Origin: Xanthobacteraceae bacterium | GTDB lineage: Bacteria > Pseudomonadota > Alphaproteobacteria > Rhizobiales > Xanthobacteraceae | Assembly (NCBI GenBank): GCA_028282095.1 | Contig: JANQIP010000280.1 | Location: 2,962 to 66,961 of the forward strand | Direction of reading: 5' to 3' | DNA: 64,000 nucleotides | In this document: in pieces, positions 3,114 to 26,427 of the stretch | Position numbering within the stretch: position 1 is the first letter of the stretch | Layout of the letters: every line of letters begins with the position of its first letter | Made by a program: the position numbers and the translations under genes | Notes under the pieces: generated by a model | What the model saw: the letters and a program-made list of their open reading frames with translations, nothing else | Database searches by the model: none | Told to the model about the DNA's origin: nothing

Positions 3114-3655
3114 CTCTCGACCACCTTCACCGCGTCCGCGATGTCCTCGCCGTCCAGGACATCGAACAGCGCGTTCATCACCGGCTCGCGCTGGCGCGCC
3201 GAGCGCGCCAACATGACCGCGCTCCGCGATGCCGGCGCCGCGGCGACGATCGCCCGCAGATCGGCACCGTTCAGCCGGTGAAATGTCAGTTGATCGAACC
3301 GCTGGCTGCGGACGCCCCGCGTCGCCGATCTGATCTGCAGCTCGCGCGGCGCGCGCAGCGGCAGCGTCACCGAGCCGTCGTTGTTGACGATCGCATGCGC
3401 CGGCAGCGCGGCTTCGCTCGATGCATCCTCGTCGACGATTCTCCCCGGCTCTTCATCGACAATCGCGGTCGGTCTCGAGAGTCCGGGAATTCCGATGGAG
3501 CCGATCGGCCCCACCGTACCGGCCGGTGGCCCACCCGCTTCCTCCCCTGCCAAAGGCGGGGGAGGGGGACCGTCCGCAGGACGGTGGAGGGGGCGCTCGG
3601 GGCGCTCGTCGACATCGACGACCACGTGCCCGTGCTCCGGATGCGGATGGGTCAT
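3080..3655 (-). CDS. tail assembly chaperone (Mu gp41 / P2 gpE-like), zero-frame product
   Basis: Start MTHPHPEHG at 3655 overlaps tube stop (ATGA). C-terminal half (LTFHRLNGADLRAI...VLDGEDIADAVKVVESFF) resembles gpE-type chaperones. Lies between tube and tape measure. N-terminal part contains a REP-like insert. Confidence 0.65.
   Translation of the reverse strand: MTHPHPEHGHVVVDVDERPERPLHRPADGPPPPPLAGEEAGGPPAGTVGPIGSIGIPGLSRPTAIVDEEPGRIVDEDASSEAALPAHAIVNNDGSVTLPLRAPRELQIRSATRGVRSQRFDQLTFHRLNGADLRAIVAAAPASRSAVMLARSARQREPVMNALFDVLDGEDIADAVKVVESFFGIGRPTGR
3107..3113 (-). promoter_or_regulatory. -1 programmed ribosomal frameshift slippery heptamer T TTT TTC
   Basis: Minus strand reads GAG AGT TTT TTC GGC in the zero frame (X XXY YYZ pattern), 25 nt before the zero-frame stop. 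The -1 frame stays open to the tape-measure start. Confidence 0.6.
3541..3594. repeat. GC-rich palindromic unit cluster, intragenic (tail chaperone)
   Basis: cctcccctgccaaaggcgggggagg plus ggaccgtccgcaggacggtgg hairpins. Confidence 0.7.
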
Positions 3656-4014
3656 GAAAGCACCTCCTCGTAATCGCCGGCGTTCCACTTGAGTTCGAGC
3701 TTGCCGCCCTCTCCGCCCGTCATCTCCGGGTGCTCGATGAGAAAAGCGTCGGGGAAGGTGAACGTCTGTCCCGTGTCGCAGATTACCTGCAGCTCGCCCT
3801 CGCCGGCGTCGTAGATGGCGGAGTAGCTCTGTCCGCGTTCGAGATGCGTGGTCGCGGTGATTTCGGAGGCCATGAATTCCTGCGCGCGGCCGACCTTGCG
3901 GCCGACGATCACGGGGTTGTTCTTCATGCCGCCGAGCTTGAGCTTAGCGCCTTTCTCGACCGGCACATTTTTGCCCCGCCAGGTGACGTCGATAATGCCG
4001 AGCATCTGCGCCAT
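3652..4014 (-). CDS. tail tube protein (Mu gpM-like)
   Basis: 120 aa directly downstream of the sheath gene and overlapping the chaperone start. Size and position typical of contractile-tail tube proteins. Confidence 0.7.
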   Translation of the reverse strand: MAQMLGIIDVTWRGKNVPVEKGAKLKLGGMKNNPVIVGRKVGRAQEFMASEITATTHLERGQSYSAIYDAGEGELQVICDTGQTFTFPDAFLIEHPEMTGGEGGKLELKWNAGDYEEVLS

Positions 4015-4035
4015 CGGCTGTCTCCTTCCTCAATC

Positions 4036-4092
4036 CGCTCCCGCCTCGCTTCGCTCGACTCCCTCTCCCGCTTGCGGGGGAGGGTTGGGGCG
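4036..4092. repeat. GC-rich palindromic unit, intergenic (sheath/tube)
   Basis: ccctctcccgcttgcgggggagggttgggg. Confidence 0.75.
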
Positions 4093-5559
4093 CTAAACCT
4101 GAAACTCCAGCGCCGCTGCCAGCACCATCAGATTGCCGATGATGCGCACCTGCTGGCTGGCGTTCAGCCTGTTGCGGTCGGTCGCATCGCGCAGGAATGT
4201 CGACTGCGCGACCGTCTCGCGTGCGCCCTCGATCCACCCCTGGCGCTCATAGAGCTTGCACCTCGCGGCCCAGGAGCCGTGCATACGCCGCGGCGTCACC
4301 ACCGCGTCGGAATGATTGGCGGCGATCGAGTCGTCATCCGCCAGCTTGTGCCGTGGATAGGTCGCGCTGACATAGCTCGCCCAATCGTAGCGGATGCGGC
4401 TCAGCGTCCGCGGCACCATGATGTCGAGCCACGCGCGATCGACACCGCCGAGGCTCGACAGATTGTAGGTGGTCACCACGCGATCGATGGCAACTGAGCC
4501 GTCGGCCGACACGGTGAAGGTCGACACGCCCGCCTTGAGCAGCAGGTCCTGCTCGGTCTCCGTCCATCGATCCGCCGCGCCTGGTGCGCTCACGCCGGGC
4601 AGCGCGAGGCCGCGCAATTGCCGTGCCGGATCGGCGGCGAGATGGTGCGTGGCGATGCCCGCGAGCGATGCCGCCCACGCCCACGGCGGCGTCGGCGAGT
4701 TCTTGGCACCGATGATCGAGATGTGCGGACTGTTGGTGATCCCGCCCACCGTCGTCAACGCGCCGAACGTGCCGCGCCCGCCGACATAGGCATGCGCGTC
4801 CTGTTTGCCCAGAGCCTCGTAGCGTGTCGCGAGATCGGCCGCGAGCGCCGCGAGATTGGTGTTGTCCGTCCATGGCACGACGATGTCCGTGAACCACTCG
4901 GCGGCGATCGCATCGAGCAGCGTCTGCACATCCGGGTTCGTGGTGCCACCGGTCATCGCAACGACGGCGCAGCTCGCGCCCGCCGGCATCGCATCGTCGA
5001 TGCGCGCATTGACGGCGAGGTGGATGGCGTTGCCCACTTCGCCTTTGTGCTTTGCCGTCACCGTGACCACTTCGGCGACCGCAGCGGCCGTGACCGCGAG
5101 GTCGGGGACGGCATTGAGCGCCGCGGCGGCGGCGGTTGCCATCTGCGCCGCGGTCGCTTCGTTGGCCACCGCGACCCGCACGCGCTGACCGGCGACATAG
5201 AGCGCGATGGTGCCCGCTGATGAGGCTGGACCGCCGAAGGTGAAGGTCCCGGCTGCGGCCTGGCCGCCGGCATCATCACCGATCGCGATGGCATAGACAT
5301 CGGATGTCTTGTTGGCCGCCTTGAACGCCTTGGCCATCGCCTCGCCGACCGAGCCCGCACCGAACAGTGCCGTGCCCTGCTCCGGCCGCGTCAACTGATA
5401 GAGTTGGCCGGCGGTCGCCGTACCCGTCCCCAGCATCTGGCACATGAGCAATGCACGCGCCGGAAACGGCAGCACGCCCACGCGATCGTAGTTCGGCCTC
5501 ACCTCGATCAGCACGCCGGGCTTGAGCCAGTCGTAGGGAATCTCGTTGAATTCCGGCAT
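4093..5559 (-). CDS. contractile tail sheath protein (Mu gpL-like)
   Basis: Start MPEFNEIPYDWLKPGVLIEV at 5559 with GGAGGAGG RBS. About 488 aa. The Arg-rich N-terminal extension in the 4093..5955 track ORF is rejected. Confidence 0.85.
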   Translation of the reverse strand: MPEFNEIPYDWLKPGVLIEVRPNYDRVGVLPFPARALLMCQMLGTGTATAGQLYQLTRPEQGTALFGAGSVGEAMAKAFKAANKTSDVYAIAIGDDAGGQAAAGTFTFGGPASSAGTIALYVAGQRVRVAVANEATAAQMATAAAAALNAVPDLAVTAAAVAEVVTVTAKHKGEVGNAIHLAVNARIDDAMPAGASCAVVAMTGGTTNPDVQTLLDAIAAEWFTDIVVPWTDNTNLAALAADLATRYEALGKQDAHAYVGGRGTFGALTTVGGITNSPHISIIGAKNSPTPPWAWAASLAGIATHHLAADPARQLRGLALPGVSAPGAADRWTETEQDLLLKAGVSTFTVSADGSVAIDRVVTTYNLSSLGGVDRAWLDIMVPRTLSRIRYDWASYVSATYPRHKLADDDSIAANHSDAVVTPRRMHGSWAARCKLYERQGWIEGARETVAQSTFLRDATDRNRLNASQQVRIIGNLMVLAAALEFQV

Positions 5560-5735
5560 CAATCCTCCTCCCAGAAGCGCCAAAAAAAGCCGTCCGGCTC
5601 CCGCCGCCATTCCCCGTCGCACACTTGGATGACGCCGCCGCACGCATTGAGATCGGGCCCGTCGTCCTCGTCGTCGCCCGTTGCGAACAACTCCATCAGT
5701 TGGTGCGGCGCCACGACGTCCTCGGTGCGGATCAT
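5559..5735 (-). CDS. small acidic hypothetical protein (58 aa)
   Basis: MIRTEDVVAPHQLMELFATGDDEDDGPDLNACGGVIQVCDGEWRREPDGFFWRFWEED. Its stop overlaps the sheath ATG (TGATG). Confidence 0.4.
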   Translation of the reverse strand: MIRTEDVVAPHQLMELFATGDDEDDGPDLNACGGVIQVCDGEWRREPDGFFWRFWEED

Positions 5736-5746
5736 GTTGTTGGCCC

Positions 5747-5977
5747 TCAGCGCTCCTCCTTCGTCTCTTCCCCTCCCCCCTTGAGGGGGAGGTCGGTCGG
5801 CGCAGCCGACCGGGAGGGGGATGCCTGCACCTCGACCAGGTCGCCGTCGGCGATGCGCCGGCGCACATATTGATCGAGCGCGACTTCTGCGCCCTCCGCC
5901 GGCCAGGGCGACCCGTCCGCCATGGGCACAGCGAGGCCGTGCGCCGGTCGCGCAAAAACCTTCGGTGGCTCCGTCAT
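5747..5977 (-). CDS. small hypothetical protein (Mu gp38 position) with REP-derived C-terminus
   Basis: Start MTEPPKVFARP at 5977 overlaps the upstream stop (ATGA). The C-terminal SPSRSAAPTDLPLKGGG is encoded by a palindromic element. Confidence 0.45.
   Translation of the reverse strand: MTEPPKVFARPAHGLAVPMADGSPWPAEGAEVALDQYVRRRIADGDLVEVQASPSRSAAPTDLPLKGGGEETKEER
5772..5834. repeat. 63-bp palindromic element, copy 1 (intragenic)
   Basis: cctccccccttgagggggaggtcggtcggcgcagccgaccgggaggggg...; near-identical to 13721-13783. Confidence 0.85.
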
Positions 5978-6537
5978 GGCCCCTCCACTTCGATGGTGTC
6001 GCTCGGCTCGCTCTCGCTTGAGAGGTCCCAATCCGAGACGAGCCGCAGGAAATCGTCGCTGGTTGCCAGCGCGGCAAGCACGTCGGCGAGGTCCGTTGTC
6101 ATGTCGAGTTCGATGGTGCCGATCGCGATCGACATGTCGCTCCAGCCGTCCGCAAAGGCCGAGCCGGCGCGGCTCACGAACAGCGTGCCGACGCCGTCGA
6201 CCTTGAGACCGCTGAGCAGCGCGGCGGCGATCAGCGTCGAGGAATAGAGCCCCGGCCCGAGCCTATCGCCCGTGAAGCGCGCCTCCCGGCCGGTGTTCTT
6301 GATCACGATGGTCAACGTGAATCCAAGCCGCCCCGTGATGCGGCGCCCGCTGGCCTGATCAACAGCGACCTCCCGCCACGCGAATCCGAGCCACGGCGTC
6401 GCCTTAGCGACGATCGACCGAAACTCCTCCAACGTTAGCGGGCTCGGTACCAACTCGAATGTCCATCGATCGTGCGCGAAAGCCGTGCGCAGCCGCGCCT
6501 CGACGGCCTGGTGCGTGGCGGTGATCGGGTCGACCAT
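5974..6537 (-). CDS. Mu gp37-like head-tail protein (DUF1834-like)
   Basis: Start MVDPITATHQAVEARL at 6537 (TGATG overlap). Position after the gp36-like gene. Confidence 0.5.
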   Translation of the reverse strand: MVDPITATHQAVEARLRTAFAHDRWTFELVPSPLTLEEFRSIVAKATPWLGFAWREVAVDQASGRRITGRLGFTLTIVIKNTGREARFTGDRLGPGLYSSTLIAAALLSGLKVDGVGTLFVSRAGSAFADGWSDMSIAIGTIELDMTTDLADVLAALATSDDFLRLVSDWDLSSESEPSDTIEVEGP

Positions 6538-6965
6538 CACAGCCCACCTCCCGCGCGCGAGCCGAACGTCGCATCGCGATCGGAGCTGCGCGCGCCGCTC
6601 GACGGCGCGATCGGTGCCGCGCCTTCGAGTGTCGCCTGGCCTGATGCAATTTTCTCCAGCCACGCGATGGTGTCACGCTGGGCGAGCCGCATCTGCTCGG
6701 TCGGCTCGCGGTCGCCGCCCATGGCGAGGTCGTAGCGCGCTAGCGTGCAAGCCGCGCGCACAATCACGTCCGGCACCGGCGCCGCGAGCGGGACGGTGTA
6801 GCGGCGGCGCAGATAGCTATCGATGCGCGCCGATGCATCGGCCAGCGCCTGCTCGATGCGCGCCGGGATGATCGTCTCGGGTAGCGGCCCATCGCCGGCC
6901 GAGAACCGCAGCACCTCCGTCTCGCCGAACCGCGAGACCATGTCGTCGACGCTCGCGTAGGTCAT
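6537..6965 (-). CDS. Mu gp36-like head-tail adaptor (DUF1320-like)
   Basis: MTYASVDDMVSRFGETEVLRFS...IEQALADASARIDSYLRRRYTVPL matches the typical DUF1320 N-terminal pattern. Confidence 0.7.
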   Translation of the reverse strand: MTYASVDDMVSRFGETEVLRFSAGDGPLPETIIPARIEQALADASARIDSYLRRRYTVPLAAPVPDVIVRAACTLARYDLAMGGDREPTEQMRLAQRDTIAWLEKIASGQATLEGAAPIAPSSGARSSDRDATFGSRAGGGL

Positions 6966-7488: not shown

Positions 7489-7937
7489 GGCACGCGCGAG
7501 ACGATCAGCTCGGGATCGTCCTCGATCGCAGCGACGTCCGCCTCGGAGAGCGCATCGAGCGGGATCACCGTCTCATGCGCGCCGAAGCTCATTCCCGCGC
7601 GCCGCCGCGACGTGCGCCTGGCGCGCACGATCAGCGACGCGCCCCCTCCACCGTCCTGCGGCAGGGGAGGATCATCCTTTCCTCCCCCGCGCCGAACGCG
7701 GGTGTTCCCGTGTTCGGCCCGACTTGGGCCGGGGGAGGTCGATCCGCGCAGCGGATCGGGAGGGGGCGGCGGCGGATCGGCCGGCTCCTCCGCGGGCGCC
7801 GACGCAACTTGCTCGCCCGTGCCTGCATCGATCGGCGATGCTTGCGCACCGCCGCCGGCGACCGCGACGTTCTCTGGCGCAGTCGCATCCGGGGCCTGCG
7901 CCCCCTCGGAATCGGATGGTTTGGTCTTGCGGGCCAT
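7485..7937 (-). CDS. hypothetical head-region protein with REP-like insert
   Basis: Start MARKTKPSDSE at 7937, just after the capsid stop. The middle (PLRGSTSPGPSRAEHGNTRVRRGGG) is encoded by palindromic units. Confidence 0.45.
   Translation of the reverse strand: MARKTKPSDSEGAQAPDATAPENVAVAGGGAQASPIDAGTGEQVASAPAEEPADPPPPPPDPLRGSTSPGPSRAEHGNTRVRRGGGKDDPPLPQDGGGGASLIVRARRTSRRRAGMSFGAHETVIPLDALSEADVAAIEDDPELIVSRVP
7691..7776. repeat. GC-rich palindromic unit cluster, intragenic (ORF 7485..7937)
   Basis: Contains gccgaacgcgggtgttcccgtgttcggc and gatccgcgcagcggatc hairpins. Confidence 0.75.
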
Positions 7938-7942
7938 GGCAC

Positions 7943-8839: not shown

Positions 8840-8849
8840 GAGTGTCCCG

Positions 8850-9269: not shown

Positions 9270-10387
9270 CGCGCGATCTCCTCGTTGTGGGCTTTGAGCT
9301 GCTCCCCATAGGCCTTTGGATCGAGGCCCATCAGCGCGCAGACTTCGCGATCCGTCTCGCTGAGGCCGTCGGCGCCGGGCTCGGTGCTCGCGCCGCGCCG
9401 GGCCCCGCCGTCATGCAGCGAGACCATGCCGGCAAGCTCTTTGGCGACGCCGTCCGGGTCTTTGACGTGGCGCTCGATGTAGTGGTCGCGCAGCGGCTTG
9501 ATCGGCTTGCCGCCGGCGATCGCGGCGTCGATCGCGCGAGTCGCGCGCTCCTTGGCGCGGTCGGCGTCCATTGTGTCGAGCTTCGTCTGCAGCTCGATCA
9601 CGGTCTTGGCGAGTTTGTCGGTGTCGGTGCCGCGTGTCTGTAGATGCTTGACCACCACGTCGGCCGTCGCGCTCTTCGCCGCGCTCGCGTCGAGCCCGGC
9701 TGCCTCGGCGATCCGGGCGAGGTCGGTGCTGCGCGCCTGCAGATGCGTGACCACGACGTCGGCCGTCGCATTCTGCGCCGCAGTGGCATCGAGACCGGCG
9801 GCCTTGGCGATGCGCTTGCGTTCGGCGCTGTGAGTCGCAATGGCGGTCTGCGCCGCGGTCGCGGCGGCGAGGATCGCCGCTTCGTCCGCATCCGCCGCGA
9901 GACCCAGTGCCGCGCGCAGCTTTGCCCACATGTCAGTGCTCCTCTGATGGAGTGTGGTGAGATTGAGATTCGGATCGTTCGTGAGCGACGCCCGCAACAG
10001 CTTCACCACGCGACCCGTGTCGCGCATCGAGACGATGGCCGGCGACAGGCCGCGATAAGCGCGGTCGGCGAGCAGCGCCCGGCCCGACTCGGTCCACTCG
10101 ACGCGCCCCCACAGCCCGTCGTCGCGCGCTTCCAGGGCGGTGATCCATCCGCGCGCCGGCGACGGCCGTCCGTCGCGGCCGGCGAGATCAATCGAATGGT
10201 TTTCGTCGATGGCGATCTTGCCGCCGGCCATCGAGGCCGCGATCACCGCTGGCGAATCGGCCAGTGTATAAGGGCCGCGGCCGTCCGCGCCGCGGAACGT
10301 GCCGGCCGGCACGAGGTGCACCCATTCGGGTGGTTCGGCGGCAGGCGCGGGCAGCGCGGAGAACAGCGTGGCGACCAGCTCGGGCAT
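9266..10387 (-). CDS. Mu gpI-like head protease/scaffold protein
   Basis: N-terminus VHLVPAGTFRGADGRGPYTL...IDENHS...ARGWITALEARDDGLWGRVEWT matches the Mu-like prophage I protein pattern. The Ala-rich C-terminal scaffold part carries a 99-bp tandem duplication. Confidence 0.85.
   Translation of the reverse strand: MPELVATLFSALPAPAAEPPEWVHLVPAGTFRGADGRGPYTLADSPAVIAASMAGGKIAIDENHSIDLAGRDGRPSPARGWITALEARDDGLWGRVEWTESGRALLADRAYRGLSPAIVSMRDTGRVVKLLRASLTNDPNLNLTTLHQRSTDMWAKLRAALGLAADADEAAILAAATAAQTAIATHSAERKRIAKAAGLDATAAQNATADVVVTHLQARSTDLARIAEAAGLDASAAKSATADVVVKHLQTRGTDTDKLAKTVIELQTKLDTMDADRAKERATRAIDAAIAGGKPIKPLRDHYIERHVKDPDGVAKELAGMVSLHDGGARRGASTEPGADGLSETDREVCALMGLDPKAYGEQLKAHNEEIAR
9638..9830 (-). 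repeat. 99-bp in-frame tandem duplication in the gpI scaffold region
   Basis: ctgtagatgcttgaccaccacgtcggccgtcgc... (9638) and ctgcagatgcgtgaccacgacgtcggccgtcgc... (9737). Peptide repeat AAGLDA(T/S)AA(Q/K)(N/S)ATADVVV(T/K)HLQ. Confidence 0.8.
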
Positions 10388-10419
10388 GCCGCGCTTATCG
10401 CAGATGGCGGATCGCCCGC

Positions 10420-10445
10420 GTCATGCCCGCCGCTGCGGGCATGAG
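10420..10445. repeat. GTCATGCCCGC-N4-GCGGGCATGA hairpin
   Basis: Second copy at 21190-21214. Confidence 0.7.
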
Positions 10446-10477
10446 CCATCCGCCTCAGGTCATCGGATAGCCCAGGC

Positions 10478-10560
10478 CATCCGTTCGTCCCCGCGCAAGC
10501 GGGGACCCAGTATATCTTGTCTTGCCAAGACTGGATTCCCGCTTTCGCGGGAATGAACGG
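10478..10560 (+). repeat. double-hairpin REP (GTCCCCGC..GCGGGGAC + ATTCCCGC..GCGGGAAT), copy in prophage
   Basis: Same element as 55026-55103 (+) and 57641-57717 (-). Confidence 0.85.
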
Positions 10561-10593
10561 AGGAGGAGTGCACCTGCAAGCGCAATCTCTAAT

Positions 10594-10649
10594 CTCCCTC
10601 TCCCGCTTGCGGGGGAGGGAGCTGAGCGTAGCGAAGCGGGAGGGGGCAC
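10594..10649. repeat. GC-rich palindromic unit, intergenic (gpI/gpG)
   Basis: ctccctctcccgcttgcgggggaggga.... Confidence 0.75.
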
Positions 10650-10656
10650 TGTTCTG

Positions 10657-11178: not shown

Positions 11179-11439
11179 CTATTCCGGCCGCATCCCGATC
11201 AGGGTGCCGTCTTCGCCGACAATGGCGCGCGGACCGGCGTTTACAACCCTTGACCCCTGGACAATCGTGCCGTCCGGAAATTCGAGGCCGCCACCGACGA
11301 CTTCCTCTTCCCAGACGCGCTTAAACCCCGGCGTGTCGCCGCGCCGCATCTTGCGGCCGTCGACCTCGACGATCTCATCGCGCGGGTCAATGGGCGGGGT
11401 CTTCTGGTCCATGATAGTCCAGGATACGCCTGTTTTCAT
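11179..11439 (-). CDS. hypothetical protein (86 aa) between Mu F and G
   Basis: ATGA overlap with the Mu F stop; ends 4 nt before the gpG start. No domain recognised. Confidence 0.45.
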   Translation of the reverse strand: MKTGVSWTIMDQKTPPIDPRDEIVEVDGRKMRRGDTPGFKRVWEEEVVGGGLEFPDGTIVQGSRVVNAGPRAIVGEDGTLIGMRPE

Positions 11440-13181
11440 GCCGGCTCAAGCAGGACGCGCACCCGGTCGTCCGCTACCGTCTCGACATCCAGAATGCGCC
11501 AGCGCTGGCCGCGGGGAAATATGTACTCCGCCTCATAGTCGGTGCCGGGCAGGGCACGCATGCCCTTCTTGGCTCTTATGCTGAACACGACTGCGGGTGC
11601 CGGCGGTGCGACGGCGAAGGTCGCGAAGCCCTCGGCGGTCGAGCGCTCCACCGAGGCCGAAAAATAACCATCGTCCCGATACACAGCGCCCTTCGACATC
11701 AACGCCCGCTCAACGCTCGGAAACTTCTCGTCGAACTTGGAGCCGCGGTGGAGCAGCACATCGGTCTTCAGCGCCGACTGCTCGATCGCACTGTCGAGCT
11801 GTTGCGTCACCTGACGCCAGTCGCCGAGGGCGTTGTCCTCCGGCATTGCGCCGCCGGCGCGGCGGAGTTGATCGTTCCAGTTCGAGTAGCCGGCGCCGGT
11901 GTAGAACCGCCGCGCCGCTTTCTGGTCGGCATCCAAATACGTATCGAGCGCCTCGATCGCCGCCCGCTGATCGGCGAGCCCCGCCTCCTTGGTGACCGGC
12001 GTCCATTGCGCCGTCGTCTGCGGCTTGAGCATCGCCTTGGTCGCGCCGTCCTGGACGCGGCCGAGCGTGGGATCGCGCGGCACGACGGGCGACGGAGCTG
12101 ACGGCGGCGCGGCGGGGGCAGCCTTTTTCGGTCCTTTGGCCCCCTTGAGCGCATCGAGCCAGCTCGGCGTCGGCGGTGGCGTCGCCGGCGGTGCAGGCGG
12201 CGGTGTTTCCGGCGCCGGTGGCGTCGCGGGCTCGGGCTTGGGCGGAGGTGGCGGCGCAGCCGGCTTCGGCGGCGCTGGCGGAGGCGCGGCCTTGGCTTTC
12301 GGTTTTGCTTTGGCCTTCGGCGCTGGCTCGGGCTTGGGCGGAGGCGGCGGTGCAGGCGGCTTTGGCGGCGCTGGCGGAGGCGCGGCCTTGGGCTTCGGTT
12401 TTGCTTTGGCCTTCGGCGCCGGCTTGGGCTTCGCTTTCGGCGGCGGCGTGATCGGCGGCGGGTCGAGCGTTGCATTGGGCGGCAGCGATATGGGCGTCGC
12501 CTTCCACACCGCGCCGGGATTGTAGTCGAAGCTCGGATCGATGCCCTTTGGCACCTGATGGACCTGCCCCGTCTTGGGGTTTGTCCAGGCGCGCATCTCG
12601 GTGGGTGGCGCTTGGTCGGGACTGCTCTTGCCCTGGCGCGCGAGATCGCGTGCGGAGAGCACGCGCACCCGGCAGCCGCAGCGCCAGCCATTGGGCGGAT
12701 AATGCGTCTCCCACCACGAGTCGTCCGCGCGCAGTACCAGCCCGTTCCACGACAGGTGATCGAGGCGCGGGTGCAACGCGCCTGAATGGACGTACTGCCA
12801 ATAGGGGTATTGCGCGCGCGTCTCCGGCGCGGTCGCCTGGGCGTAGCGGCCAGCGCTGTAGGCCATTGACAGATTGGTCTCGTAGATGATGCGTGCGCGC
12901 CAGCCCGGCGTGCCGGTGTGCTTCCACCCGTGTTTCTTCACGATGGCGTCGAACTGCTTGCGGAAGTCGGCGAGCGTCGTGCCCTGCTCCAGCGCCTTCG
13001 TCACTTCGGCGCGGAAATCCTTGACCAGCGCTTCGGTCGCCGCGCCCGCAACCGTGAACGCCCGCGCATTGGCGCGCTGCCACACATCGGTCCAATGCGT
13101 CGACGTCGCATTGGTCTTCTCGGCAAAATACTGAATCGCCTCCTCGAACGGCAGCGACAGCGCCTTGACCGTCGTCGTCAT
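11436..13181 (-). CDS. Mu F-like head morphogenesis protein fused to a C-terminal ADP-ribosyltransferase (R-S-E type) domain
   Basis: N-terminus (start MTTTVKALSLPFEEAIQYF at 13181) has Mu F hallmarks: RIIYETNLSMAYSAGRY, HPRLDHLSWNGLVL, PPNGWRCGCRV. Then a Pro/Ala/Lys linker. C-terminus has FYTGAGYSNWNDQLR, LHRG, GYFSAS and YEAEYIFPRG (ExE). Confidence 0.85.
   Translation of the reverse strand: MTTTVKALSLPFEEAIQYFAEKTNATSTHWTDVWQRANARAFTVAGAATEALVKDFRAEVTKALEQGTTLADFRKQFDAIVKKHGWKHTGTPGWRARIIYETNLSMAYSAGRYAQATAPETRAQYPYWQYVHSGALHPRLDHLSWNGLVLRADDSWWETHYPPNGWRCGCRVRVLSARDLARQGKSSPDQAPPTEMRAWTNPKTGQVHQVPKGIDPSFDYNPGAVWKATPISLPPNATLDPPPITPPPKAKPKPAPKAKAKPKPKAAPPPAPPKPPAPPPPPKPEPAPKAKAKPKAKAAPPPAPPKPAAPPPPPKPEPATPPAPETPPPAPPATPPPTPSWLDALKGAKGPKKAAPAAPPSAPSPVVPRDPTLGRVQDGATKAMLKPQTTAQWTPVTKEAGLADQRAAIEALDTYLDADQKAARRFYTGAGYSNWNDQLRRAGGAMPEDNALGDWRQVTQQLDSAIEQSALKTDVLLHRGSKFDEKFPSVERALMSKGAVYRDDGYFSASVERSTAEGFATFAVAPPAPAVVFSIRAKKGMRALPGTDYEAEYIFPRGQRWRILDVETVADDRVRVLLEPA
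12229..12420 (-). repeat. 96-bp in-frame tandem duplication in the Pro/Ala/Lys linker of the Mu F-ART protein
   Basis: ggctcgggcttgggcggagg... starts at 12229 and again at 12325. Encodes PKPEPAPKAKAKPK(P/A)KAAPPPAPPKP(P/A)APPPP twice. Confidence 0.8.
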
Positions 13182-13236: not shown

Positions 13237-13410
13237 CCTTTCCCCGCGCCGAACGCGGGTGTTCCCGTGTTCGGCCCAGTTTCGAGTGGCCCAAGTCGGG
13301 AACACCCGACTTGGGCTGGGGAGAGGTCGACGCGCGAAGCGCGGCGGGTGAGGGGCAATGCACAGCCCCCTCCCGTCTTGCTCCGCTCGTCGTCAGGGAG
13401 GGGGCGCGCA
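13237..13410. repeat. composite GC-rich palindromic cluster, intergenic (portal/Mu F)
   Basis: gccgaacgcgggtgttcccgtgttcggc, gcccaagtcgggaacacccgacttgggc and gtcgacgcgcgaagcgcggc units. Confidence 0.8.
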
Positions 13411-17417: not shown

Positions 17418-18082
17418 GAGCCCTCTCCCGCCGCGCTGCGCGCGTTATCCTCGCCCGCTTGCGGCTGATCGTGAGGGGGCGCCGTCACGCCGAGAATCCT
17501 TGCCTTGATCGTCTCGACCGTCTCGGCTGACAGTCCCTTGGCTGCGGCGACGGCATCGACGGCTTTGTTCGCGCGCGCCTGGACCTCCGCCTCGATCTTC
17601 CTGCGGCCGTCCGCGCTGATGCGTTTGGCCTCCTCCGCATGTTTGAGTGCGCGGCTCGTCTGCATCAGCATCTCGGCGGTGGCGCCGTCTGCGGCGATCT
17701 CGCCGGCATTGGAGAGCATCTCATGCAGCAGCGTCTTGATCGCCTCGGAGACCAGCAGCGTCACCGAGTCATCGCCCGCGCGATCGAGCTTCGGCGCCAG
17801 CACGGCCGCGATCTCGCGCGTCTCCGTCAATCGCCGGCCGAGCACGGCGAGCCTGAACGCCGTGCGATTGAATGCCGATCGCGAAATCTGCGGCGGATCG
17901 GTGACGCCGTTTTCCCACGCCGCGGCCTTGAGCGCTTCGTTGAACTCGGCGAGGATTTCGAGTTGCGGCTTTTTGCGCTCCTTGAGCGCGGCGAAGGCGG
18001 CGAGCCGCGCTTCGTCCGCCCACTCGGGGAGCTGGTCGATCGCCGACAGTCGTCCGCGGCCGCGGTGCTCGCGCTCGGTCAT
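17414..18082 (-). CDS. terminase small subunit-like protein (Mu gp27 / DUF3486-like)
   Basis: RGRLSAIDQLPEWADEARLAAFAALKERKKPQLEILAEFNEAL pattern. ATGA overlap with the large subunit. Confidence 0.7.
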   Translation of the reverse strand: MTEREHRGRGRLSAIDQLPEWADEARLAAFAALKERKKPQLEILAEFNEALKAAAWENGVTDPPQISRSAFNRTAFRLAVLGRRLTETREIAAVLAPKLDRAGDDSVTLLVSEAIKTLLHEMLSNAGEIAADGATAEMLMQTSRALKHAEEAKRISADGRRKIEAEVQARANKAVDAVAAAKGLSAETVETIKARILGVTAPPHDQPQAGEDNARSAAGEGS

Positions 18083-18366
18083 TGCGCTACCGCGCTATCG
18101 CGGCCCCCTCCCGTCTCGCTCCGCTCGACTCCCTCCCCCGCTTGCGGGGGAGGGTTGGGGAGGGGGCGTCGTCGTTTGTCCCGTGTAAGGTCATCGGCGG
18201 CGACACGCGCAGCCGAAAGCTCCCTCACCGACTCAATCCACCGGCGGTCCGCGGCGAGATCGCCCGGCGCGTCCCGCATCGCGGCGCGTGCCTCGCGCTC
18301 GGCGTCGATCGCCGCCAGCAGCCGGCGCACAGCACTCTTCAACTCGCGCAAGCTGCTTGAGCGCAT
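18079..18366 (-). CDS. hypothetical protein with REP-derived C-terminus
   Basis: 95 aa. The C-terminal PLPNPPPQAGEGVERSETGGG is encoded by a palindromic element. Confidence 0.4.
   Translation of the reverse strand: MRSSSLRELKSAVRRLLAAIDAEREARAAMRDAPGDLAADRRWIESVRELSAARVAADDLTRDKRRRPLPNPPPQAGEGVERSETGGGRDSAVAQ
18104..18167. repeat. GC-rich palindromic unit at ORF 18079..18366 C-terminus
   Basis: ccctcccccgcttgcgggggagggttggggaggggg. Confidence 0.75.
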
Positions 18367-19029: not shown

Positions 19030-19044
19030 GTCAGTCTCCGCTAC

Positions 19045-20943: not shown

Positions 20944-20946
20944 CGC

Positions 20947-21159: not shown

Positions 21160-21189
21160 TCCCGAAATTACGCGCCGCGCGGAAAAGCC

Positions 21190-21214
21190 GTCATGCCCGC
21201 GGCTGCGGGCATGC
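21190..21214. repeat. GTCATGCCCGC-N4-GCGGGCATGC hairpin between Mor and the lysis genes
   Basis: Copy of 10420-10445. Confidence 0.7.
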
Positions 21215-21249
21215 GCGCACGAGACCAGATCGCTGAGATGCTGCTGGCG

Positions 21250-22342: not shown

Positions 22343-23001
22343 CGCCGTCTCCTTTTCTTGGGCCCGCGCCGGGGCGAAGACTGCTTCTCGCCGCGCAGCC
22401 ACTGCAGCTCGCACGTCCAGACCTCGATGATTGTGGTGCTGTCCTCGCCTTGGAGCGGGCGCTCGCGCACGCGCGCGAGGAACACGCGATGCACCTCATC
22501 CCACGGCATCGTCAGCACGCCGCCGGGAAATTCCTCGTTGCCAAGCCGGACGGTCATCGGGTTGTCTCCAACAAACGGTGGGCGGAAGAACATCGGTGCG
22601 ATGCAGCCGCGGCACGGCACGAACGGCAGGACATGCGGTTTGCGCAGCACCAGTCCGACTCGCTCGTCGATGAACCAAGGACTGTCAGACTCGGTCACGA
22701 CATCGACCAGCTCCACTGTCCCGATGATGCCGCCGCGCGCGAGTTCACCGCGCTCCGGAATGGCGATGCCGGGAGGCAGCCGCGGTGCGATGACGCCCCG
22801 TGCATTGCTGTATTCGACGCGCGTCATCCCGACGGACGCGTGGATCATGATGCGCTCGCACCGCGCCGCGAGTTCGCGCGCGCGACGGACATGGGCGCTC
22901 GTCAGCGACCAGTCGCGGTTCTCGATGTCCTTGCCGCCATGGATGCAGGCCCAGGCCCAGGGCTGCCTCACCGACAGAGCGAGCGTGACCTCCGCGCTCA
23001 T
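22339..23001 (-). CDS. ASCH domain protein
   Basis: LALSVRQPWAWACIHGGKDIENRDW is the typical ASCH N-terminal motif. Confidence 0.7.
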   Translation of the reverse strand: MSAEVTLALSVRQPWAWACIHGGKDIENRDWSLTSAHVRRARELAARCERIMIHASVGMTRVEYSNARGVIAPRLPPGIAIPERGELARGGIIGTVELVDVVTESDSPWFIDERVGLVLRKPHVLPFVPCRGCIAPMFFRPPFVGDNPMTVRLGNEEFPGGVLTMPWDEVHRVFLARVRERPLQGEDSTTIIEVWTCELQWLRGEKQSSPRRGPKKRRRR

Positions 23002-23360
23002 GCGCCGCTCCTTTCGTCGCGCCGCGCAAGCGTCAGCAGCCGGAATTCAACGCTCTTGCGCGGCCGGCCGAGCGTGCGGGCGATGGCCGTGAGACCGAGA
23101 CCGTCCAGGCGGAGCCGGCTCAGCTCGGCGTCCTCGTCGGGTGTGAAGGCGCGGACCTCCCGGCCGTGGCGCATGACCACTGGGTATCGCCGCGTCTGGA
23201 CCCGTGATGGCTTGGGCGCCTCGGCTCCAGCCTGCAGGCATCGGAAATACACAGCGCCAAACGAGACGCCGAACTCGCGAGCGATAGCGCGATACGTCAT
23301 CCCGCGCTCGCGCATCGCGACCATGGCGTCGATCTCGGCGCCACTGAGTTGGCGTCTCAT
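22998..23360 (-). CDS. HTH DNA-binding protein (two HTH-like segments)
   Basis: Start MRRQLSGAEIDAM at 23360 (ATGA overlap). RERGMTYRAIAREFGVSFGAVY and GLGLTAIARTLGRPRKSV. Confidence 0.5.
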   Translation of the reverse strand: MRRQLSGAEIDAMVAMRERGMTYRAIAREFGVSFGAVYFRCLQAGAEAPKPSRVQTRRYPVVMRHGREVRAFTPDEDAELSRLRLDGLGLTAIARTLGRPRKSVEFRLLTLARRDERSGA

Positions 23361-24205
23361 GCCGCGCCCCCATCCGCGTCGACGCGGGCGAGCGTGTTGC
23401 GCAGCTTGCGCCCGAGCGCCGACTGCACCGCGCCGTAGTCGGCGTCCTCGAAAAAGCACCAGCCATTCTTCCAGGTGATTTTGAAAGCGTAGCGGCCGAG
23501 CCCGTCGGCGAGGGTCTCGCCCTCCAGCGGCTTCACCGCGCCGAGCGAGGAAAGGCGCTGCCACTGCGCATCGATCACCGCGCGCTTAAGTGCGGTCGGA
23601 TCGGCGTCTTTGTCGGCCGGCCATCCGACGCCGCCGCGCCTGAGCCAGCTTTTCAGCGCTTCGATCGCGCTATGCGCATCCTCGGGAGCGAGAAACTTGA
23701 CATGACTGACGCCGGTCTGACGCTGCAGGAATGACAGCATCGCGCGGTCGCTGCGGTCGCGCACCAGGCCGAGATCGTAGCCGGCGATCCACAATGCGCG
23801 CAGCTTGCCGCCGACCGGCGTGTCGAGGCCGGCGACCGCTCCTTTCGCCAGCGGAAGGTCTTGCCCCCTCCCGCGTCGCTGCGCTCCGCTCCCTCCCCCG
23901 CACCGAACACGGGTGTTCCCGTGTTCGGCCCAGTTTCGAGTGGCCCAAGTCGGGAACACCCGACTTGGGCTGACGCGGGTGTTCCCGTGTTCGGCACCGT
24001 CTTGAGTCTGCCCCGCCAATTCCTTGAGCGCGTCGATGACGCGCACCGCATCGGCCGCGGTGAGCAGCTTGGTAGACCGCACACCTGCCTGCGAGTCGAG
24101 GAATGCACGATAGGCGTCGTCATCCATGCCGACGCGGTTCTGCAGCGTGCGGATCGCCGTGATCTGCTTGGCGCTCACCATCGGGACGGGCGTGGCCGCG
24201 ATCAT
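23357..24205 (-). CDS. gemA: GemA-like regulatory protein (Mu gp16 / DUF1018) with large REP-like insert
   Basis: KQITAIRTLQNRVGMDDDAYRAFL and KLRALWIAGYDLGLVRDRSDRAMLSFLQRQTGVSHVKFL are the duplicated DUF1018 pattern. The central EHGNTRV...SRVFPTWAT segment is encoded by palindromic units. Confidence 0.75.
   Translation of the reverse strand: MIAATPVPMVSAKQITAIRTLQNRVGMDDDAYRAFLDSQAGVRSTKLLTAADAVRVIDALKELAGQTQDGAEHGNTRVSPSRVFPTWATRNWAEHGNTRVRCGGGSGAQRRGRGQDLPLAKGAVAGLDTPVGGKLRALWIAGYDLGLVRDRSDRAMLSFLQRQTGVSHVKFLAPEDAHSAIEALKSWLRRGGVGWPADKDADPTALKRAVIDAQWQRLSSLGAVKPLEGETLADGLGRYAFKITWKNGWCFFEDADYGAVQSALGRKLRNTLARVDADGGAA
23863..23997. repeat. composite GC-rich palindromic cluster, intragenic (GemA)
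   Basis: Two gccgaacacgggtgttcccgtgttcggc-type units flanking gcccaagtcgggaacacccgacttgggc. Confidence 0.8.
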
Positions 24206-25194
24206 GGCGCTCCGTCCTCGACGGTCGTCAAATCGGCTATGCCCTGCTCTCGCTTTCGGCTATGTCGGCGCGCCCATTCCTCACGTGGAATTGCCCGGAC
24301 GCGAGAGAACTCACGATCTGCCTCGACGTCGGCCGAATGGCCGAGACTCTCGGCGAGGCACTCAAGCGTCACCTGTGCCTGACCGATCTCGCGCGCAGCG
24401 TCGCCCGCCGGTCGCGAATAGACACGGTCCAGGATCGCATCGATGGTCGCGCGTGCGAGACCCTGCGTTTGCGCCAGTTCGATCGCTTCTTCGATGAAGC
24501 GCGCGGCGCGTTCATCCGCGTGCCGCGCGACGCCGCCGAATGTCTCGACAGCCCACTGCAGCACCGCACTAGGCCTCGGCACGGCGCCGTAGAACGCCGC
24601 GCCGAACACCGCCAGCGCTTCCGCATCCTTATCGCCCTCGCTCCAGCCTGAGCCGCAGAACGGACAATAGGTCCATCCGGGATCGATCCCGTTGTCGCAT
24701 TCGTCGCAGCGCAGCAGCGGCACATGGGGCGTAGGGGGCGTGTCGAATGCATCGAGATGGAGGAGCACGGCATCGGCGATGACGTCGTCGGCCGCCTCGC
24801 CATGCGCGTCGCAGAACTGCGCAAGCCGGTTCCGCAGCTCGGGCGGGAGCTGCCCCCTCCCCAACCCTCCCCCGCGCCGAACGCGGGTGCTCCCGTGTTC
24901 GGCTTCGTGTCGAGTGGCCCAAGTCGGGAACACCCGACTTGGGCTGGGGGAGGGAGCTGAATGCAGCGAAGCGGGAGGGGGCGGCTCGACGAGCCGCAAC
25001 GTACGCTGTCCGTACCGCGTCCAATCGACATAGCCGCGCGCCTTCAGCCCGCCGATTAGTCTGGCCACCGTCGATTTCGACTGGCAGCCGAGTGCGCGCA
25101 TCAGCTCGGTGTAGCTTGGCGAGCAGCCGTGCTCGGCGATGTAGCTGCGAATGATAGCGAGGCAGTCGGCCTGGCGCCGCGTGAGGCCCATCAT
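24202..25194 (-). CDS. LexA-type wHTH + zinc-ribbon + MazG-like (NTP pyrophosphohydrolase-like) fusion protein
   Basis: N-terminus LTRRQADCLAIIRSYIAEHGCSPSYTELMRALGCQSKSTVARLIGGLKARGYV (LexA DNA-binding domain pattern). CDECDN...YCPFCG. C-terminus LQWAVETFG...RAARFIEEAIELAQ...QAQVTLECLAESLG. A REP insert follows the wHTH. Confidence 0.6.
   Translation of the reverse strand: MMGLTRRQADCLAIIRSYIAEHGCSPSYTELMRALGCQSKSTVARLIGGLKARGYVDWTRYGQRTLRLVEPPPPASLHSAPSPSPSRVFPTWATRHEAEHGSTRVRRGGGLGRGQLPPELRNRLAQFCDAHGEAADDVIADAVLLHLDAFDTPPTPHVPLLRCDECDNGIDPGWTYCPFCGSGWSEGDKDAEALAVFGAAFYGAVPRPSAVLQWAVETFGGVARHADERAARFIEEAIELAQTQGLARATIDAILDRVYSRPAGDAAREIGQAQVTLECLAESLGHSADVEADREFSRVRAIPREEWARRHSRKREQGIADLTTVEDGAP
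24852..24982. repeat. composite GC-rich palindromic cluster, intragenic (LexA-DBD/MazG-like ORF)
   Basis: Same unit order as 13237-13410. Confidence 0.8.
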
Positions 25195-25706
25195 GATGCG
25201 GCCTCATCGAGTTCGAACGGTTTGATTTCGAACTCTTCGCCCGCCGATCCGATCGTTATGCCTTGGACGGCCCCGGCGACTTCGGGCTCCTTGAGCATCG
25301 CGTTCTTGTCGAGCTGCTCTTCGAAGCGCGTGGCGATGAATTGGTCGAGCTTGAAGAATTTCAATCGTGCGAGAATGTTCTTGACGGTGTCGCTGAACGT
25401 CACCTTCGCGGGACGACTGCGCCAAGAGACGGTCCCGGTCTCGAATCTCGCGGTCTTGCCCTTACCGCGGGTGAGGCGCTGGCGGTGCTCTGTGCAATAG
25501 GCTTCGAGACGCTCTCGTGAGGTCTTTCTCGCCTCTTCAAGTGGCGCGATTTGCTCGGCAACACGCGCCGCGATGTTCGCGATCCTGTTGTCTCCGTCTG
25601 CCTTGATCTGTGCGATCCGCCGCTCAAGCTTTCCGACGTTGGCGATCGCCGCCGCCGCTTGCTTGTCATTCCGCACATAGGGCGGCGGCTTCGGTCTTTT
25701 CGTCAT
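25191..25706 (-). CDS. gam: Gam-like host nuclease inhibitor (Mu Gam family)
   Basis: AAAAIANVGKLERRIAQIKADGDNRIANI...GKTARFETGTVSWR... is the characteristic Mu Gam pattern. 171 aa. Confidence 0.85.
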   Translation of the reverse strand: MTKRPKPPPYVRNDKQAAAAIANVGKLERRIAQIKADGDNRIANIAARVAEQIAPLEEARKTSRERLEAYCTEHRQRLTRGKGKTARFETGTVSWRSRPAKVTFSDTVKNILARLKFFKLDQFIATRFEEQLDKNAMLKEPEVAGAVQGITIGSAGEEFEIKPFELDEAAS

Positions 25707-26427
25707 CGGTCTCCTCCTCCACCGCGTAACCGAGCGCGGCGAGCGCGCCGGCGAGCGTGTCCGTCAGGGCGCGAGCGCTGTCGGCAAGCGCCGCTGCTTC
25801 TTCCGCCGCGCGCCGCTCGACTCCCTCCCCCGCACCGAACACGGGTGTTCCCGTGTTCGGCCCGACTTGGGCTGGAGGAGGGTTGGGGAGGGGGCGCTGC
25901 GCGCGCTCCATTGCGTCGACGGTGCTGAGCAGCCGGTAGGCGGTGGCGGCGATCTCCTCCAGCGCCAGCACGCGATCGGCCATGGCGACGATGGCGTCGA
26001 CCGATATGCCGAGCGCTTCGCGATTGGGATTGCGCATGATCTTTTCTGCGGCGGCGACGGCATCGGCGTCGCGATAGCGCGCGCCTTCTGTCGTGGCTGC
26101 GAGCGCGATCACGGCCTCGCGCGCCTCCGCCACCCGCGCGGCGAATGCAGGGTCAGCGGCGACCAATCTGTGCCCCGAGTCGAGGCCATGTTTGATTGTG
26201 GAGTGCTCGCGGTTGCCGAGCAGGCGCCCGATCGCACTGGTCGTCAGGGCTGTTTGCTCGCGCGCGAGCAGATAGACGACCCGGCGCGCGTCGACCAATC
26301 GGCCCTCGCGGCGGCCGGACAACAGCACGTGGCGGTCTATGCCCCACTGACTGGCGACCACGCGCACGATCAGCGCGACCGGGACTCGCACCGGCGGCTG
26401 GCGGCTCTCCGCAAGTGCGCCGCTCAT
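25666..26427 (-). CDS. DnaA C-terminal-domain-like HTH protein
   Basis: IVRVVASQWGIDRHVLLSGRREGRLVDARRVVYLLAREQTALTTSAIGRLLGNREHSTIKHGL resembles DnaA domain IV. ATGA overlap with the MuB stop. REP insert in the C-terminal half. Confidence 0.55.
   Translation of the reverse strand: MSGALAESRQPPVRVPVALIVRVVASQWGIDRHVLLSGRREGRLVDARRVVYLLAREQTALTTSAIGRLLGNREHSTIKHGLDSGHRLVAADPAFAARVAEAREAVIALAATTEGARYRDADAVAAAEKIMRNPNREALGISVDAIVAMADRVLALEEIAATAYRLLSTVDAMERAQRPLPNPPPAQVGPNTGTPVFGAGEGVERRAAEEAAALADSARALTDTLAGALAALGYAVEEETDDEKTEAAALCAE
25812..25894. repeat. GC-rich palindromic cluster, intragenic (DnaA-C-like ORF)
   Basis: ccctcccccgcaccgaacacgggtgttcccgtgttcggcccgacttgggc.... Confidence 0.8.

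Follow-up and report, generated by a model that had tools for sequence, protein, structure and literature searches.

A 64,000-nt stretch of a Xanthobacteraceae bacterium genome (assembly GCA_028282095.1, contig JANQIP010000280.1, positions 2,962 to 66,961 of the forward strand; here, the window) carries a Mu-type prophage in which GC-rich, nested palindromic repeats lie in-frame inside seven genes. All seven copies are insertions relative to homologues in 156 related Mu-like loci. An earlier reading of the letters alone (the original prediction) had placed such repeats inside seven recognizable open reading frames (ORFs), and homologue alignments bore this out in every case. We consider it likely that these repeats are non-autonomous, moved in trans by a hairpin-recognizing enzyme, and that purifying selection left the frame-preserving, stop-free linker copies, which are translated as inert spacers.

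The prophage occupies ca. 1 to 31 kb of the window (66 to 72% GC, 68% overall), with its genes on the minus strand, while the region from 32 to 64 kb (59 to 66% GC, 62% overall) holds core genes of the host (adenylosuccinate lyase, FolD, and a tRNA among them). The Mu-type gene set is complete (MuA, MuB, GemA, Mor-like, endolysin, gp27, large terminase, Mu portal, Mu F, G, protease I, head protein T, gp36, gp38-like DUF2635 protein, sheath, tube, tail assembly chaperone [TAC], and tape measure), and Pfam family matches were full length for all Mu hallmark genes. The comparison set (2.83 Mb) was made up of 76 loci from genomes and 80 from IMG/VR, and homologues were aligned using local tblastn and MAFFT. 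The closest loci in it were Rhodoplanes prophages (portal identity, 75%), and the closest relatives free of the repeats, L001 and L013, had the same gene set as the window prophage.

The recurrence of composite hairpin units in the prophage, as originally claimed, was confirmed by motif counts against shuffled sequence and by direct-repeat families. Three units quoted as examples in the original prediction each recurred 3 to 6 times at ≤3 mismatches, against a shuffle expectation of 0 (100 shuffles). The motif GGGAGGGGG was present in 15 copies versus 0.53 expected, with 14 of the 15 at 3.5 to 26 kb, and all the loci listed were joined by direct-repeat families D1, D3, D4, D8, D9, D12, and D20 (62 to 100% identity). 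These units are nested palindromes, in which a scaffold hairpin is either “empty” or “filled” in its inner loop by a doublet. The scaffold (ca. 64 nt), itself a dispersed repeat with inverted, C5/G5-rich arms, consists of the outer arm GCCCCCTCCC, the inner hairpin CCCTCCCCCGC-(TTGC)-GGGGGAGGG, a small side hairpin, and the outer arm GGGAGGGGGC. Empty scaffolds are found at 4036 to 4092, 10594 to 10647, and 18104 to 18167. Their alignment with the filled ones (13237 to 13345 and 24852 to 24982) places a doublet of ca. 69 nt exactly in the inner loop, and partial or rearranged filled copies lie at 7680 to 7776, 23863 to 23997, and 25795 to 25894. In the doublet, hairpin A (GCCGAACGCGGGTGTTCCCGTGTTCGGC) is separated by a 13-nt spacer from hairpin B (GCCCAAGTCGGGAACACCCGACTTGGGC). 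Their inner parts, CGGGTGTTCCCG and CGGGAACACCCG, are reverse complements without a mismatch, which makes the doublet similar to a REPIN (a hairpin-forming doublet of repetitive extragenic palindromic [REP] sequences). As in REPINs, the two hairpins are inverted around a short spacer; here, the spacer is 11 to 13 nt and the arms of 28 to 34 nt are 76 to 79% complementary. A second scaffold type of 54 to 63 nt, CCTCCCCCC-TTGA-GGGGGAGG followed by a GC hairpin and GGGAGGGGG, is found at 3538 to 3596, 5772 to 5834, and 13721 to 13783, the last two copies being 94% identical with sharp ends. The complete 131-nt element (24852 to 24982) folds at −93.9 kcal/mol (z = −9.2), and the other elements have z values of −2.1 to −6.4. 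All six copies of hairpin A in the window share one strand, whereas scaffolds are found in both orientations.

All of the colonized genes are on the minus strand. In the Mu-type portal gene (13420 to 15096), a 63-nt element plus an GGTTGGGGAGGGGGC arm (13721 to 13805) is read in-frame (..GPLPNPLDEVQSPPSRSAAPTDLPLKGGGK..) at amino acids (aa) ca. 428 to 458, within a hypervariable linker that follows ..VIGGR and precedes the conserved C-terminal ca. 100 aa. GemA (23357 to 24205; 282 aa) contains 135 nt at 23863 to 23997, made up of a scaffold arm, hairpin A, hairpin B, and a second hairpin A (z = −5.9). This insert encodes 45 aa in-frame (AEHGNTRVSPSRVFPTWATRNWAEHGNTRVRCGGGSGAQRRGRGQ), a block absent from 22 of 22 aligned homologues. 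Along similar lines, among the best 120 homologues in the database, GemA is mostly ca. 220 to 235 aa long, and the 119-position Pfam profile is stretched over 164 aa of the window protein. GemA relatives occur in Afipia, Nitrobacter, Bradyrhizobium, Rhodopseudomonas, Pseudolabrys, and Rhodoplanes, which may point to a host within or close to Nitrobacteraceae or Xanthobacteraceae. The next ORF, with a LexA-type DNA-binding domain (LexA-DBD; 24202 to 25194; 330 aa), carries the complete filled composite in-frame, in the order outer arm, side hairpin, inner arm, A, spacer, B, inner arm, and outer arm. This gives an insert of ca. 40 to 45 aa between ..LRLVE and LPPELRNRL.. that is absent from L001 and L013. 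The same ORF is much longer than its counterparts in two other phages, L280 and L281 (157 to 171 aa), and runs on into a zinc ribbon and a phrog_8593-like domain, which suggests a fusion with downstream genes that stay separate in relatives. Finally, in the DnaA_C-domain ORF (25666 to 26427; 253 aa), a scaffold filled with hairpin A and a partial hairpin B (25795 to 25894) is in-frame with the gene and is read in a different frame of the element (RPLPNPPPAQVGPNTGTPVFGAGEGVERR), as an insert of ca. 31 aa relative to L001.

The other three cases lie among the tail genes and in ORF 7937 to 7485. The TAC gene (3080 to 3655; 191 aa) starts at the ATG at 3655, in an ATGA overlap with the tube stop, and an independent gene call on Logan contig L077 (SRR20820736) gave the same 191 aa. 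Its element (3538 to 3596), of the 54-nt scaffold type (CCTCCCCTGCC-AAA-GGCGGGGGAGG, a CCGTCC-GCA-GGACGG hairpin, and GGAGGGGGC), is in-frame and encodes approximately RPLHRPADGPPPPPLAGEE. TAC homologues likewise start at a Met overlapping the tube stop (ATGA), share the motif HxV(I/V)D(L/V)DE, and then lack 26 to 31 residues; the N-terminal HVVVDVDE of the window protein aligns to L012 and L020, with the gap of 26 to 31 aa exactly at the repeat. In the gp38-like gene (5747 to 5977; 76 aa, with DUF2635 over aa 10 to 52), the C-terminal tail (..EVQASPSRSAAPTDLPLKGGGEE..) is the 63-nt element at 5772 to 5834 (CCTCCCCCC-TTGA-GGGGGAGG, a TCGGTCGGC-GCA-GCCGACCG hairpin, and GGGAGGGGG), and the tails of homologues are unrelated. 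In ORF 7937 to 7485, an in-frame composite (7639 to 7776) occupies the variable Pro-rich middle between a conserved MARKTKP N terminus and a FluMu_N-like C terminus. It comprises the inverted end of a 54-nt type (7639 to 7660), hairpin A (7691 to 7718), a partial hairpin B, and a scaffold arm with a GATCCGC-GCA-GCGGATC hairpin. The seven genes were thus those originally named, and two extents were mended, the insert in the latter ORF reaching 7639 and that in the portal gene reaching ca. 13805. Peptides that span inserts are ..SAAPTDLPLK.. (portal), ..PADGPPPPPLAGEE.. (TAC), and ..VFPTWATR.. (GemA). A reading of the TAC and gp38 repeats as lying upstream of the true starts, based on Pfam/PHROG coordinates, was overturned by the L012/L020 alignment, the ATGA coupling, and a third-frame search. 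GC3 frame plots were too noisy across the elements for deciding the frame.

Of the window insertions followed by conserved sequence, 6 of 6 kept the frame. With a chance of 1/3 per event under neutrality, neutral decay would be unlikely to give this outcome (ca. 0.001). In the complete 131-nt element, five of the six frames contain no stop, and elsewhere stops are rare. Inserts consist of 57 to 77% P+G+S+R+A+T and fall, according to the alignments, in poorly conserved linkers or tails. The placement of inserts on AlphaFold models, advised in the original prediction, was carried out for GemA alone (AlphaFold2, 66-sequence alignment), giving a mean predicted local distance difference test (pLDDT) score of 83.9; the insert (aa 72 to 114) is modeled as coil with a pLDDT of <50 between helices with a pLDDT of >90. 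The comparison originally drawn with Rickettsia palindromic elements (RPEs) was therefore supported for the seven genes, in which repeats lie in ORFs without breaking the frame, homologues lack the stretch, and copies match one another at the DNA level (92 to 100% identity within the prophage), the GemA insert also falling in a region predicted to be disordered. Homologues have no equivalent residues at the same positions, so that the insertion reading stands, and the affected ORFs are not decayed, given the frames kept ahead of conserved sequence and the full-length Mu genes.

Three other Mu-like phages, L078, L280, and L281, are also colonized, and frame is preserved in their cases as well. 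L078, an IMG/VR contig found by hairpin pattern alone, has a large terminase 73% identical to that of the window and carries a scaffold in-frame in the same GemA linker, in the opposite orientation, with an A/B doublet in-frame near the GemA C terminus and a hairpin in the portal linker. Further scaffold copies lie just upstream of its gp27-like and large terminase genes and between portal and Mu F. In L280 (portal 77% and GemA 62% identical to the window), in-frame hairpins are found twice in the LexA-DBD ORF, once in GemA linker 2, and once in the portal linker, where the site is that of the window but the copy is of the 54-nt subtype (as in TAC) and in the opposite orientation; the portal C-terminal tail holds a further copy. 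In L281, the LexA-DBD ORF contains an empty 64-nt scaffold where the window carries a filled one, and GemA linker 2 holds another subtype. Scaffold arms are >90% identical between phages from different samples. That the same few linkers were hit independently is expected of a strong permissive-site filter and equally of a target preference. Among the 156 related loci, on the other hand, there was no A, B, or scaffold module apart from one chance 12-mer; none had ≥3 G5AG3-type motifs, versus 30 in the window prophage, and a generic hairpin scan returned one scaffold-like hairpin, in the spacer between genes G and I (G-I spacer) of L001.

The family extends well beyond phages. Whereas the exact subtype of hairpin A had no match in viral or metagenome collections, the stem-tolerant pattern GAACNCGGGTGTTCCCGNGTTC matched metagenome contigs from soil or peat, at least 120 in number. 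The architecture of these copies is the same (C-rich arm, hairpin A, AT-rich spacer, hairpin B [CAAGTCGGAAACATCCGACTTG], and G-rich arm, often then followed by GGGGAGGGGGG..CCCCCCTCCC). Contig by contig, the A/B doublet sits in the center of several different outer palindromes, an arrangement that points to insertion of the doublet into hairpin loops. Among the matches listed, two free stem positions were Watson-Crick paired in 106 of 116 unique copies, hairpin A showed no orientation bias with respect to flanking genes (20 versus 16 in unidirectional contexts), and most copies were intergenic. A coding-signature test, which recovers 2 of 4 known in-gene window copies, found 3 of 91 testable copies (ca. 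3%) to be in-frame in genes (L132, ca. 293 to 314; L140, 4183 to 4204; and L145, 1765 to 1786), the genes being a DnaE2-type polymerase, an ImuA-like protein, and a hydantoinase/oxoprolinase. Published intragenic REPs favor dnaE2 and repair genes (PMC3733652), likewise the case in L132 and L140.

Taken together, we propose that the repeat units are probably non-autonomous nested palindromes of the REP, REPIN, and bacterial interspersed mosaic element (BIME) kind, with the scaffold inner loop acting as the landing site for the ca. 69-nt A/B doublet. The doublet family, widespread in soil Alphaproteobacteria, would have repeatedly entered a clade of Mu-like transposable phages, and because a phage genome has almost no intergenic space, most landing sites would have been coding. 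The copies that survived would be those that kept the frame, contained no stop codon, and fell in disordered linkers or tails. Since the arms are G/C only, nearly all six frames would be stop-free, and the inserts would then be translated as Pro/Gly/Ser/Arg-rich unstructured spacers of 18 to 45 aa. A trans-acting hairpin-recognizing enzyme working on single-stranded DNA would provide mobility, purifying selection would be the filter, and the inserts would have no function for the phage. Loop nesting, and the fact that hairpin A keeps to one strand while scaffolds flip (n = 6), are consistent with a single-strand-, strand-specific process, which is the mode of IS200/IS605 and REP-associated tyrosine transposase (RAYT) enzymes. 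The uniform orientation in the window (6 of 6; P of ca. 0.03) is weak evidence for such a process, because orientation in the metagenomes shows no bias.

Several results weigh against this account. No transposase able to move the elements, including Y1 (RAYT) types, was found among the scanned window ORFs, and the sharp ends of the 63-nt pair show no target-site duplication, with no orthologous empty site near enough for a DNA-level comparison; we therefore infer mobility solely from how the elements are distributed. IMG/VR, JGI metagenomes, and the 32 kb of adjacent host DNA did not contain hairpin A in the exact subtype of the window. Moreover, passive invasion from the present chromosome plus filtering does not fully explain the load, since the density of scaffolds in the prophage is ca. 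7 times that of family-bearing metagenome DNA. There are 11 scaffold sites in the 31 kb of prophage (3.55 per 10 kb) versus 1 in the 32 kb of host flank (0.31 per 10 kb, a ca. 11-fold difference), with no A/B copy in the latter, and versus 0.53 sites per 10 kb, leaving out the seeded element, in the family-bearing metagenome contigs listed (378 kb). Against 1.6 expected sites, the 11 observed give a Poisson P of 1.3e-6. The source of this load may be carriage or amplification within the phage lineage.

It is accordingly possible, if rather unlikely in our estimate, that the elements are carried and amplified within the transposable-phage lineage and that the phages are vehicles moving REP-type repeats between hosts. 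In addition to the excess of scaffold sites over host and metagenome DNA, the near identity of copies within the prophage and of arms between phages from different samples agrees with this, as does the difference in GC content between prophage and flank. Other repeat families abound in the host flank itself (4.4 dispersed-repeat sites per 10 kb in a k=18 count; phage relatives have a median of 0), and the prophage lacks most of them, notably the families GATCATGC..CGAAAAG and GTGATGCGGCACCAAC. A comparison of k=14 repeat coverage was confounded by GC and was superseded by the k=18 site count together with motif and hairpin scans. The exception among the repeats of the host flank is one CGTC-tagged REP doublet of host type (10478 to 10561; CGTCCCCGCG..CGGGGAC / TTCCCGC..GCGGGAAT) in the G-I spacer of the prophage, which belongs to another family, of a class described in PMC3733652, and recurs in the host flank at 55028 to 55104 and 57640 to 57715. 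At least one host-type repeat has thus entered the prophage, and this host-to-phage traffic speaks against phage carriage, as do the clearly cellular contexts of the family in metagenomes (dnaE2, imuA-like, and hydantoinase) and the 156 related Mu-like loci, which are free of window modules save for the one scaffold-like hairpin of L001; the host side of the comparison, in addition, covers 32 kb alone. Of the two origins offered in the original prediction, invasion by host REPs or a phage lineage that tolerates them, the evidence favors each in part. The former is supported by the cellular nature of the family and its wide occurrence in metagenomes, and the latter by the recurrent colonization, at the same linkers, of the clade formed by the window prophage, L280, and L281, plus L078.

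The repeats of the host flank form several families of their own. One palindrome family with perfect 16-nt arms, GTGATGCGGCACCAAC..GTTGGTGCCGCATCAC, is found at 36538 to 36617, 46184 to 46263, 49066 to 49145, and 59802 to 59853. Another, GATCATGC..CCGAAAAGT..ACTTTTCGG..GATCATGC, has at least 10 copies in 41149 to 62127 (for example, at 50781, 54685, 55850, 56630, 59636, 60568 to 60642, and 61699) and none in the prophage; in the metagenome contigs L085 and L099, an A/B doublet lies inside this kind of arm. An inverted repeat at 63260 to 63350 in host DNA (35-nt arms, 86% complementary; 21-nt loop) has a higher AT content than the sequence around it.

Co-option of the elements by the phage, as RNA hairpins that would stabilize, attenuate, or pause transcripts, as sites for DNA gyrase or host factors, or as useful linker peptides, is possible but unsupported, and we regard it as improbable. 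The structures are very stable, and the same linkers are occupied in four phages, but subtypes and orientations differ at the shared sites, so that neither sequence nor strand is conserved, and the peptides are of low complexity, with the GemA insert, the one modeled, predicted to be disordered. REP and BIME elements bind gyrase in Escherichia coli, and the largest intergenic cluster of the prophage, which includes the CGTC-tagged doublet and a scaffold element, lies in the G-I spacer (10388 to 10656; 269 nt). This is near the map position of the central strong gyrase site of Mu, close to genes G and I (PMC10052514). However, although the spacer has a median length of 85 nt in relatives, it is equally long in L001 and L013 (ca. 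271 nt), where it has no elements apart from the small scaffold-like hairpin in L001. The notion that the prophage is a decaying remnant, with frames open through the repeats as an accident of high GC and copies lying in pseudogenes or upstream of starts, is largely refuted and, in our judgment, hardly credible: long spurious ORFs are common in 68% GC DNA, and TAC and sheath PHROG/Pfam matches do begin downstream of the mechanical ORF starts (the upstream extension of the sheath ORF being spurious), but conserved same-frame sequence stands on both sides of the insert in TAC, ORF 7485, portal, GemA, LexA-DBD, and DnaA_C, the ATGA start/stop couplings are intact, no Mu hallmark gene is truncated, and there are eight or more further in-frame cases in the three other phages.

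Given this, it is worth placing the elements among known systems. RPEs (Ogata et al., as summarized in PMC10969869 and PMC3733652) resemble them in being palindromes of ca. 50 to 150 nt that are in-frame in many unrelated genes, encode peptides that function can accommodate, and fall into several subfamilies. Nevertheless, RPEs are AT-rich and presumably unrelated in sequence, whereas the elements described here are about 80% GC, a composition that makes sequence homology to RPE-1 to RPE-10 implausible. Their carriers also differ, an obligate intracellular genome in one case and a free-living soil alphaproteobacterial lineage with its Mu-like phages in the other. In addition, unlike RPEs, the present elements are nested, and the family in cellular DNA is mostly intergenic, with ca. 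3% in-frame among the matches listed. REPs and REPINs (PMC3116915, PMC3733652) share with them the short imperfect palindromes, the inverted doublets that fold into a longer hairpin, the stem covariation, the occasional intragenic copies, and, judging from the metagenome contigs, apparently a dispersed high copy number. However, the tags of the GTAG and CGTC superfamilies of REPs (PMC3733652) are both lacking from hairpins A and B (GCCGAACGCGGGTGTTCCCGTGTTCGGC and GCCCAAGTCGGGAACACCCGACTTGGGC), no RAYT gene was seen nearby in the window, and REPINs are described as vertically inherited chromosomal residents, while the copies here are concentrated in phage genomes. Miniature transposable elements with inverted repeats (MITEs) that are inserted in-frame in genes (enterobacterial repetitive intergenic consensus [ERIC], Correia, and cyanobacterial elements; PMC10969869) are likewise small, non-coding, inverted-repeat-bounded elements able to give translational fusions, and the outer arms GCCCCCTCCC and GGGAGGGGGC close both the 64- and the 131-nt elements. 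However, these arms are only ca. 10 nt long, and neither a target-site duplication nor a parent insertion sequence was found here. The mosaics of palindromic modules in variable order and orientation are reminiscent, in description, of BIMEs and Rhizobium intergenic mosaic elements (RIMEs). Both of these are intergenic by definition, while more than half of the prophage copies are coding.

Database searches gave no counterpart of the elements. Rfam had no family for any of them, the composite element had no BLASTN match in INPHARED (50,697 phage records) or PLSDB (72,556 plasmid records), a result to which the low-complexity filter may contribute, and protein word-index searches with repeat-encoded peptides returned nothing useful. 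A literature search turned up no account of phage genes that carry REP or MITE copies in-frame, although its coverage was partial, so that this is no proof. In the original prediction, such dense coding-region colonization was not known to have been described for a Mu-like phage, and we found no report of it either, but intragenic GTAG and CGTC REPs are themselves known outside Rickettsia (PMC3733652), and in-frame RPEs provide a precedent within it (PMC10969869). The phenomenon is therefore a known one (Rickettsia RPEs and intragenic REPs) in a new setting, the coding linkers of a Mu-like phage clade, and for the nested element family we found no prior description.

The remaining copies lie between genes, and here the original list stood in part. 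An empty scaffold (4036 to 4092; side hairpin, CCCTCTCCCGC-TTGC-GGGGGAGGG, and TTGGGG) is found between the sheath stop and the tube start. The element between portal and Mu F (13237 to 13410; z = −6.4) is a scaffold variant filled with A (13248 to 13275), a 13-nt spacer, and B (13289 to 13316), followed by a separate hairpin, GCCCCCTCCC..GGGAGGGGGC, at 13365 to 13405. Of the range 10420 to 10649, originally given as one locus, the scaffold at 10594 to 10647 (CCCTCTCCCGC-TTGC-GGGGGAGGG, side hairpin, and GGGAGGGGGC; empty and intergenic, in the G-I spacer) belongs to the family, but its middle is the CGTC-tagged doublet. The stretches 10420 to 10444, upstream of gene I, and 21190 to 21214, downstream of the Mor-like gene but upstream of the lysis genes, do not belong to the repeat family. 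They are two copies of a conserved phage palindrome, CATGCCCGC-N4-GCGGGCATG (10422 to 10443 and 21192 to 21213), found at the same map positions in the related prophages L010, L029, L033, L035, L040, and others (G-I spacer, upstream of the lysis genes, and after TAC). It is a phage cis-element, plausibly one bound by the late-transcription activator, by analogy with the PI and Plys arrangement of Mu. The complete empty 64-nt scaffold at 18104 to 18167 (z = −4.9), between a 100-aa gene and gp27, had been considered intergenic but turned out to form the C-terminal tail of a possible 95-aa ORF (18079 to 18366, minus strand) with start/stop overlaps with both neighbors, and it is a possible eighth in-frame case. 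The 95-aa ORF had no family match; its position is taken by a GapR-like gene in L281 and by non-coding DNA in L280.

Some other features of the phage deserve mention. The Mu F-like gene (11436 to 13181, minus strand) contains a long Pro/Ala/Lys-rich tandem repeat (12166 to 12413; 96-nt period; PAPKAKAKPK..), after which the protein has an extra C-terminal domain, present in L013 too. A 99-nt tandem duplication (77% identity) is found at 9605 to 9802 within the Mu I protease/scaffold gene. The gp38 and sheath genes have between them a 58-aa ORF (5559 to 5735, minus strand; MIRTEDVV..FWEED), whose stop overlaps the sheath start; it shows a good GC3 signal and has neither a counterpart in relatives nor a family match. 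Past the window start, contig L077 has two more scaffold motifs (L077 positions 4297 to 4305 and 6114 to 6122), one between the DNA-circulation and baseplate genes and one after gp45. This contig starts and ends at repeats, as expected of multicopy sequence. For annotation and assembly, this is a warning that public short-read contigs of this phage break at repeats and that repeat-derived peptides inflate its “hypothetical” sequence.

In-frame colonization of genes by palindromic repeats is textbook knowledge for Rickettsia alone, with scattered chromosomal cases elsewhere. Here, the colonized phage is apparently intact, portal and TAC included, and the colonization recurs at the same linkers in four phages. 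The inserts mark naturally permissive insertion sites in Mu-type proteins and amount to a natural experiment in which selection filters mobile-element insertions by frame, absence of stops, and disorder. They also raise the question whether transposable phages accumulate REP-type elements and carry them from one genome to another. In its strongest form, advanced here as a tentative and still doubtful proposal, Mu-like phages of soil Alphaproteobacteria would be preferential reservoirs and horizontal vectors of REP/REPIN-type repeats. If this is true, the elements build up in phages at several times their chromosomal density and travel with the virion into new hosts, with portal, GemA, the LexA-like protein, and the tail chaperone offering the permissive linkers. 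This would contradict the prevailing view, in which such repeats reside in chromosomes and are inherited strictly vertically, and would make the structural and regulatory proteins of these phages a continual trial ground for repeat-derived peptide segments.

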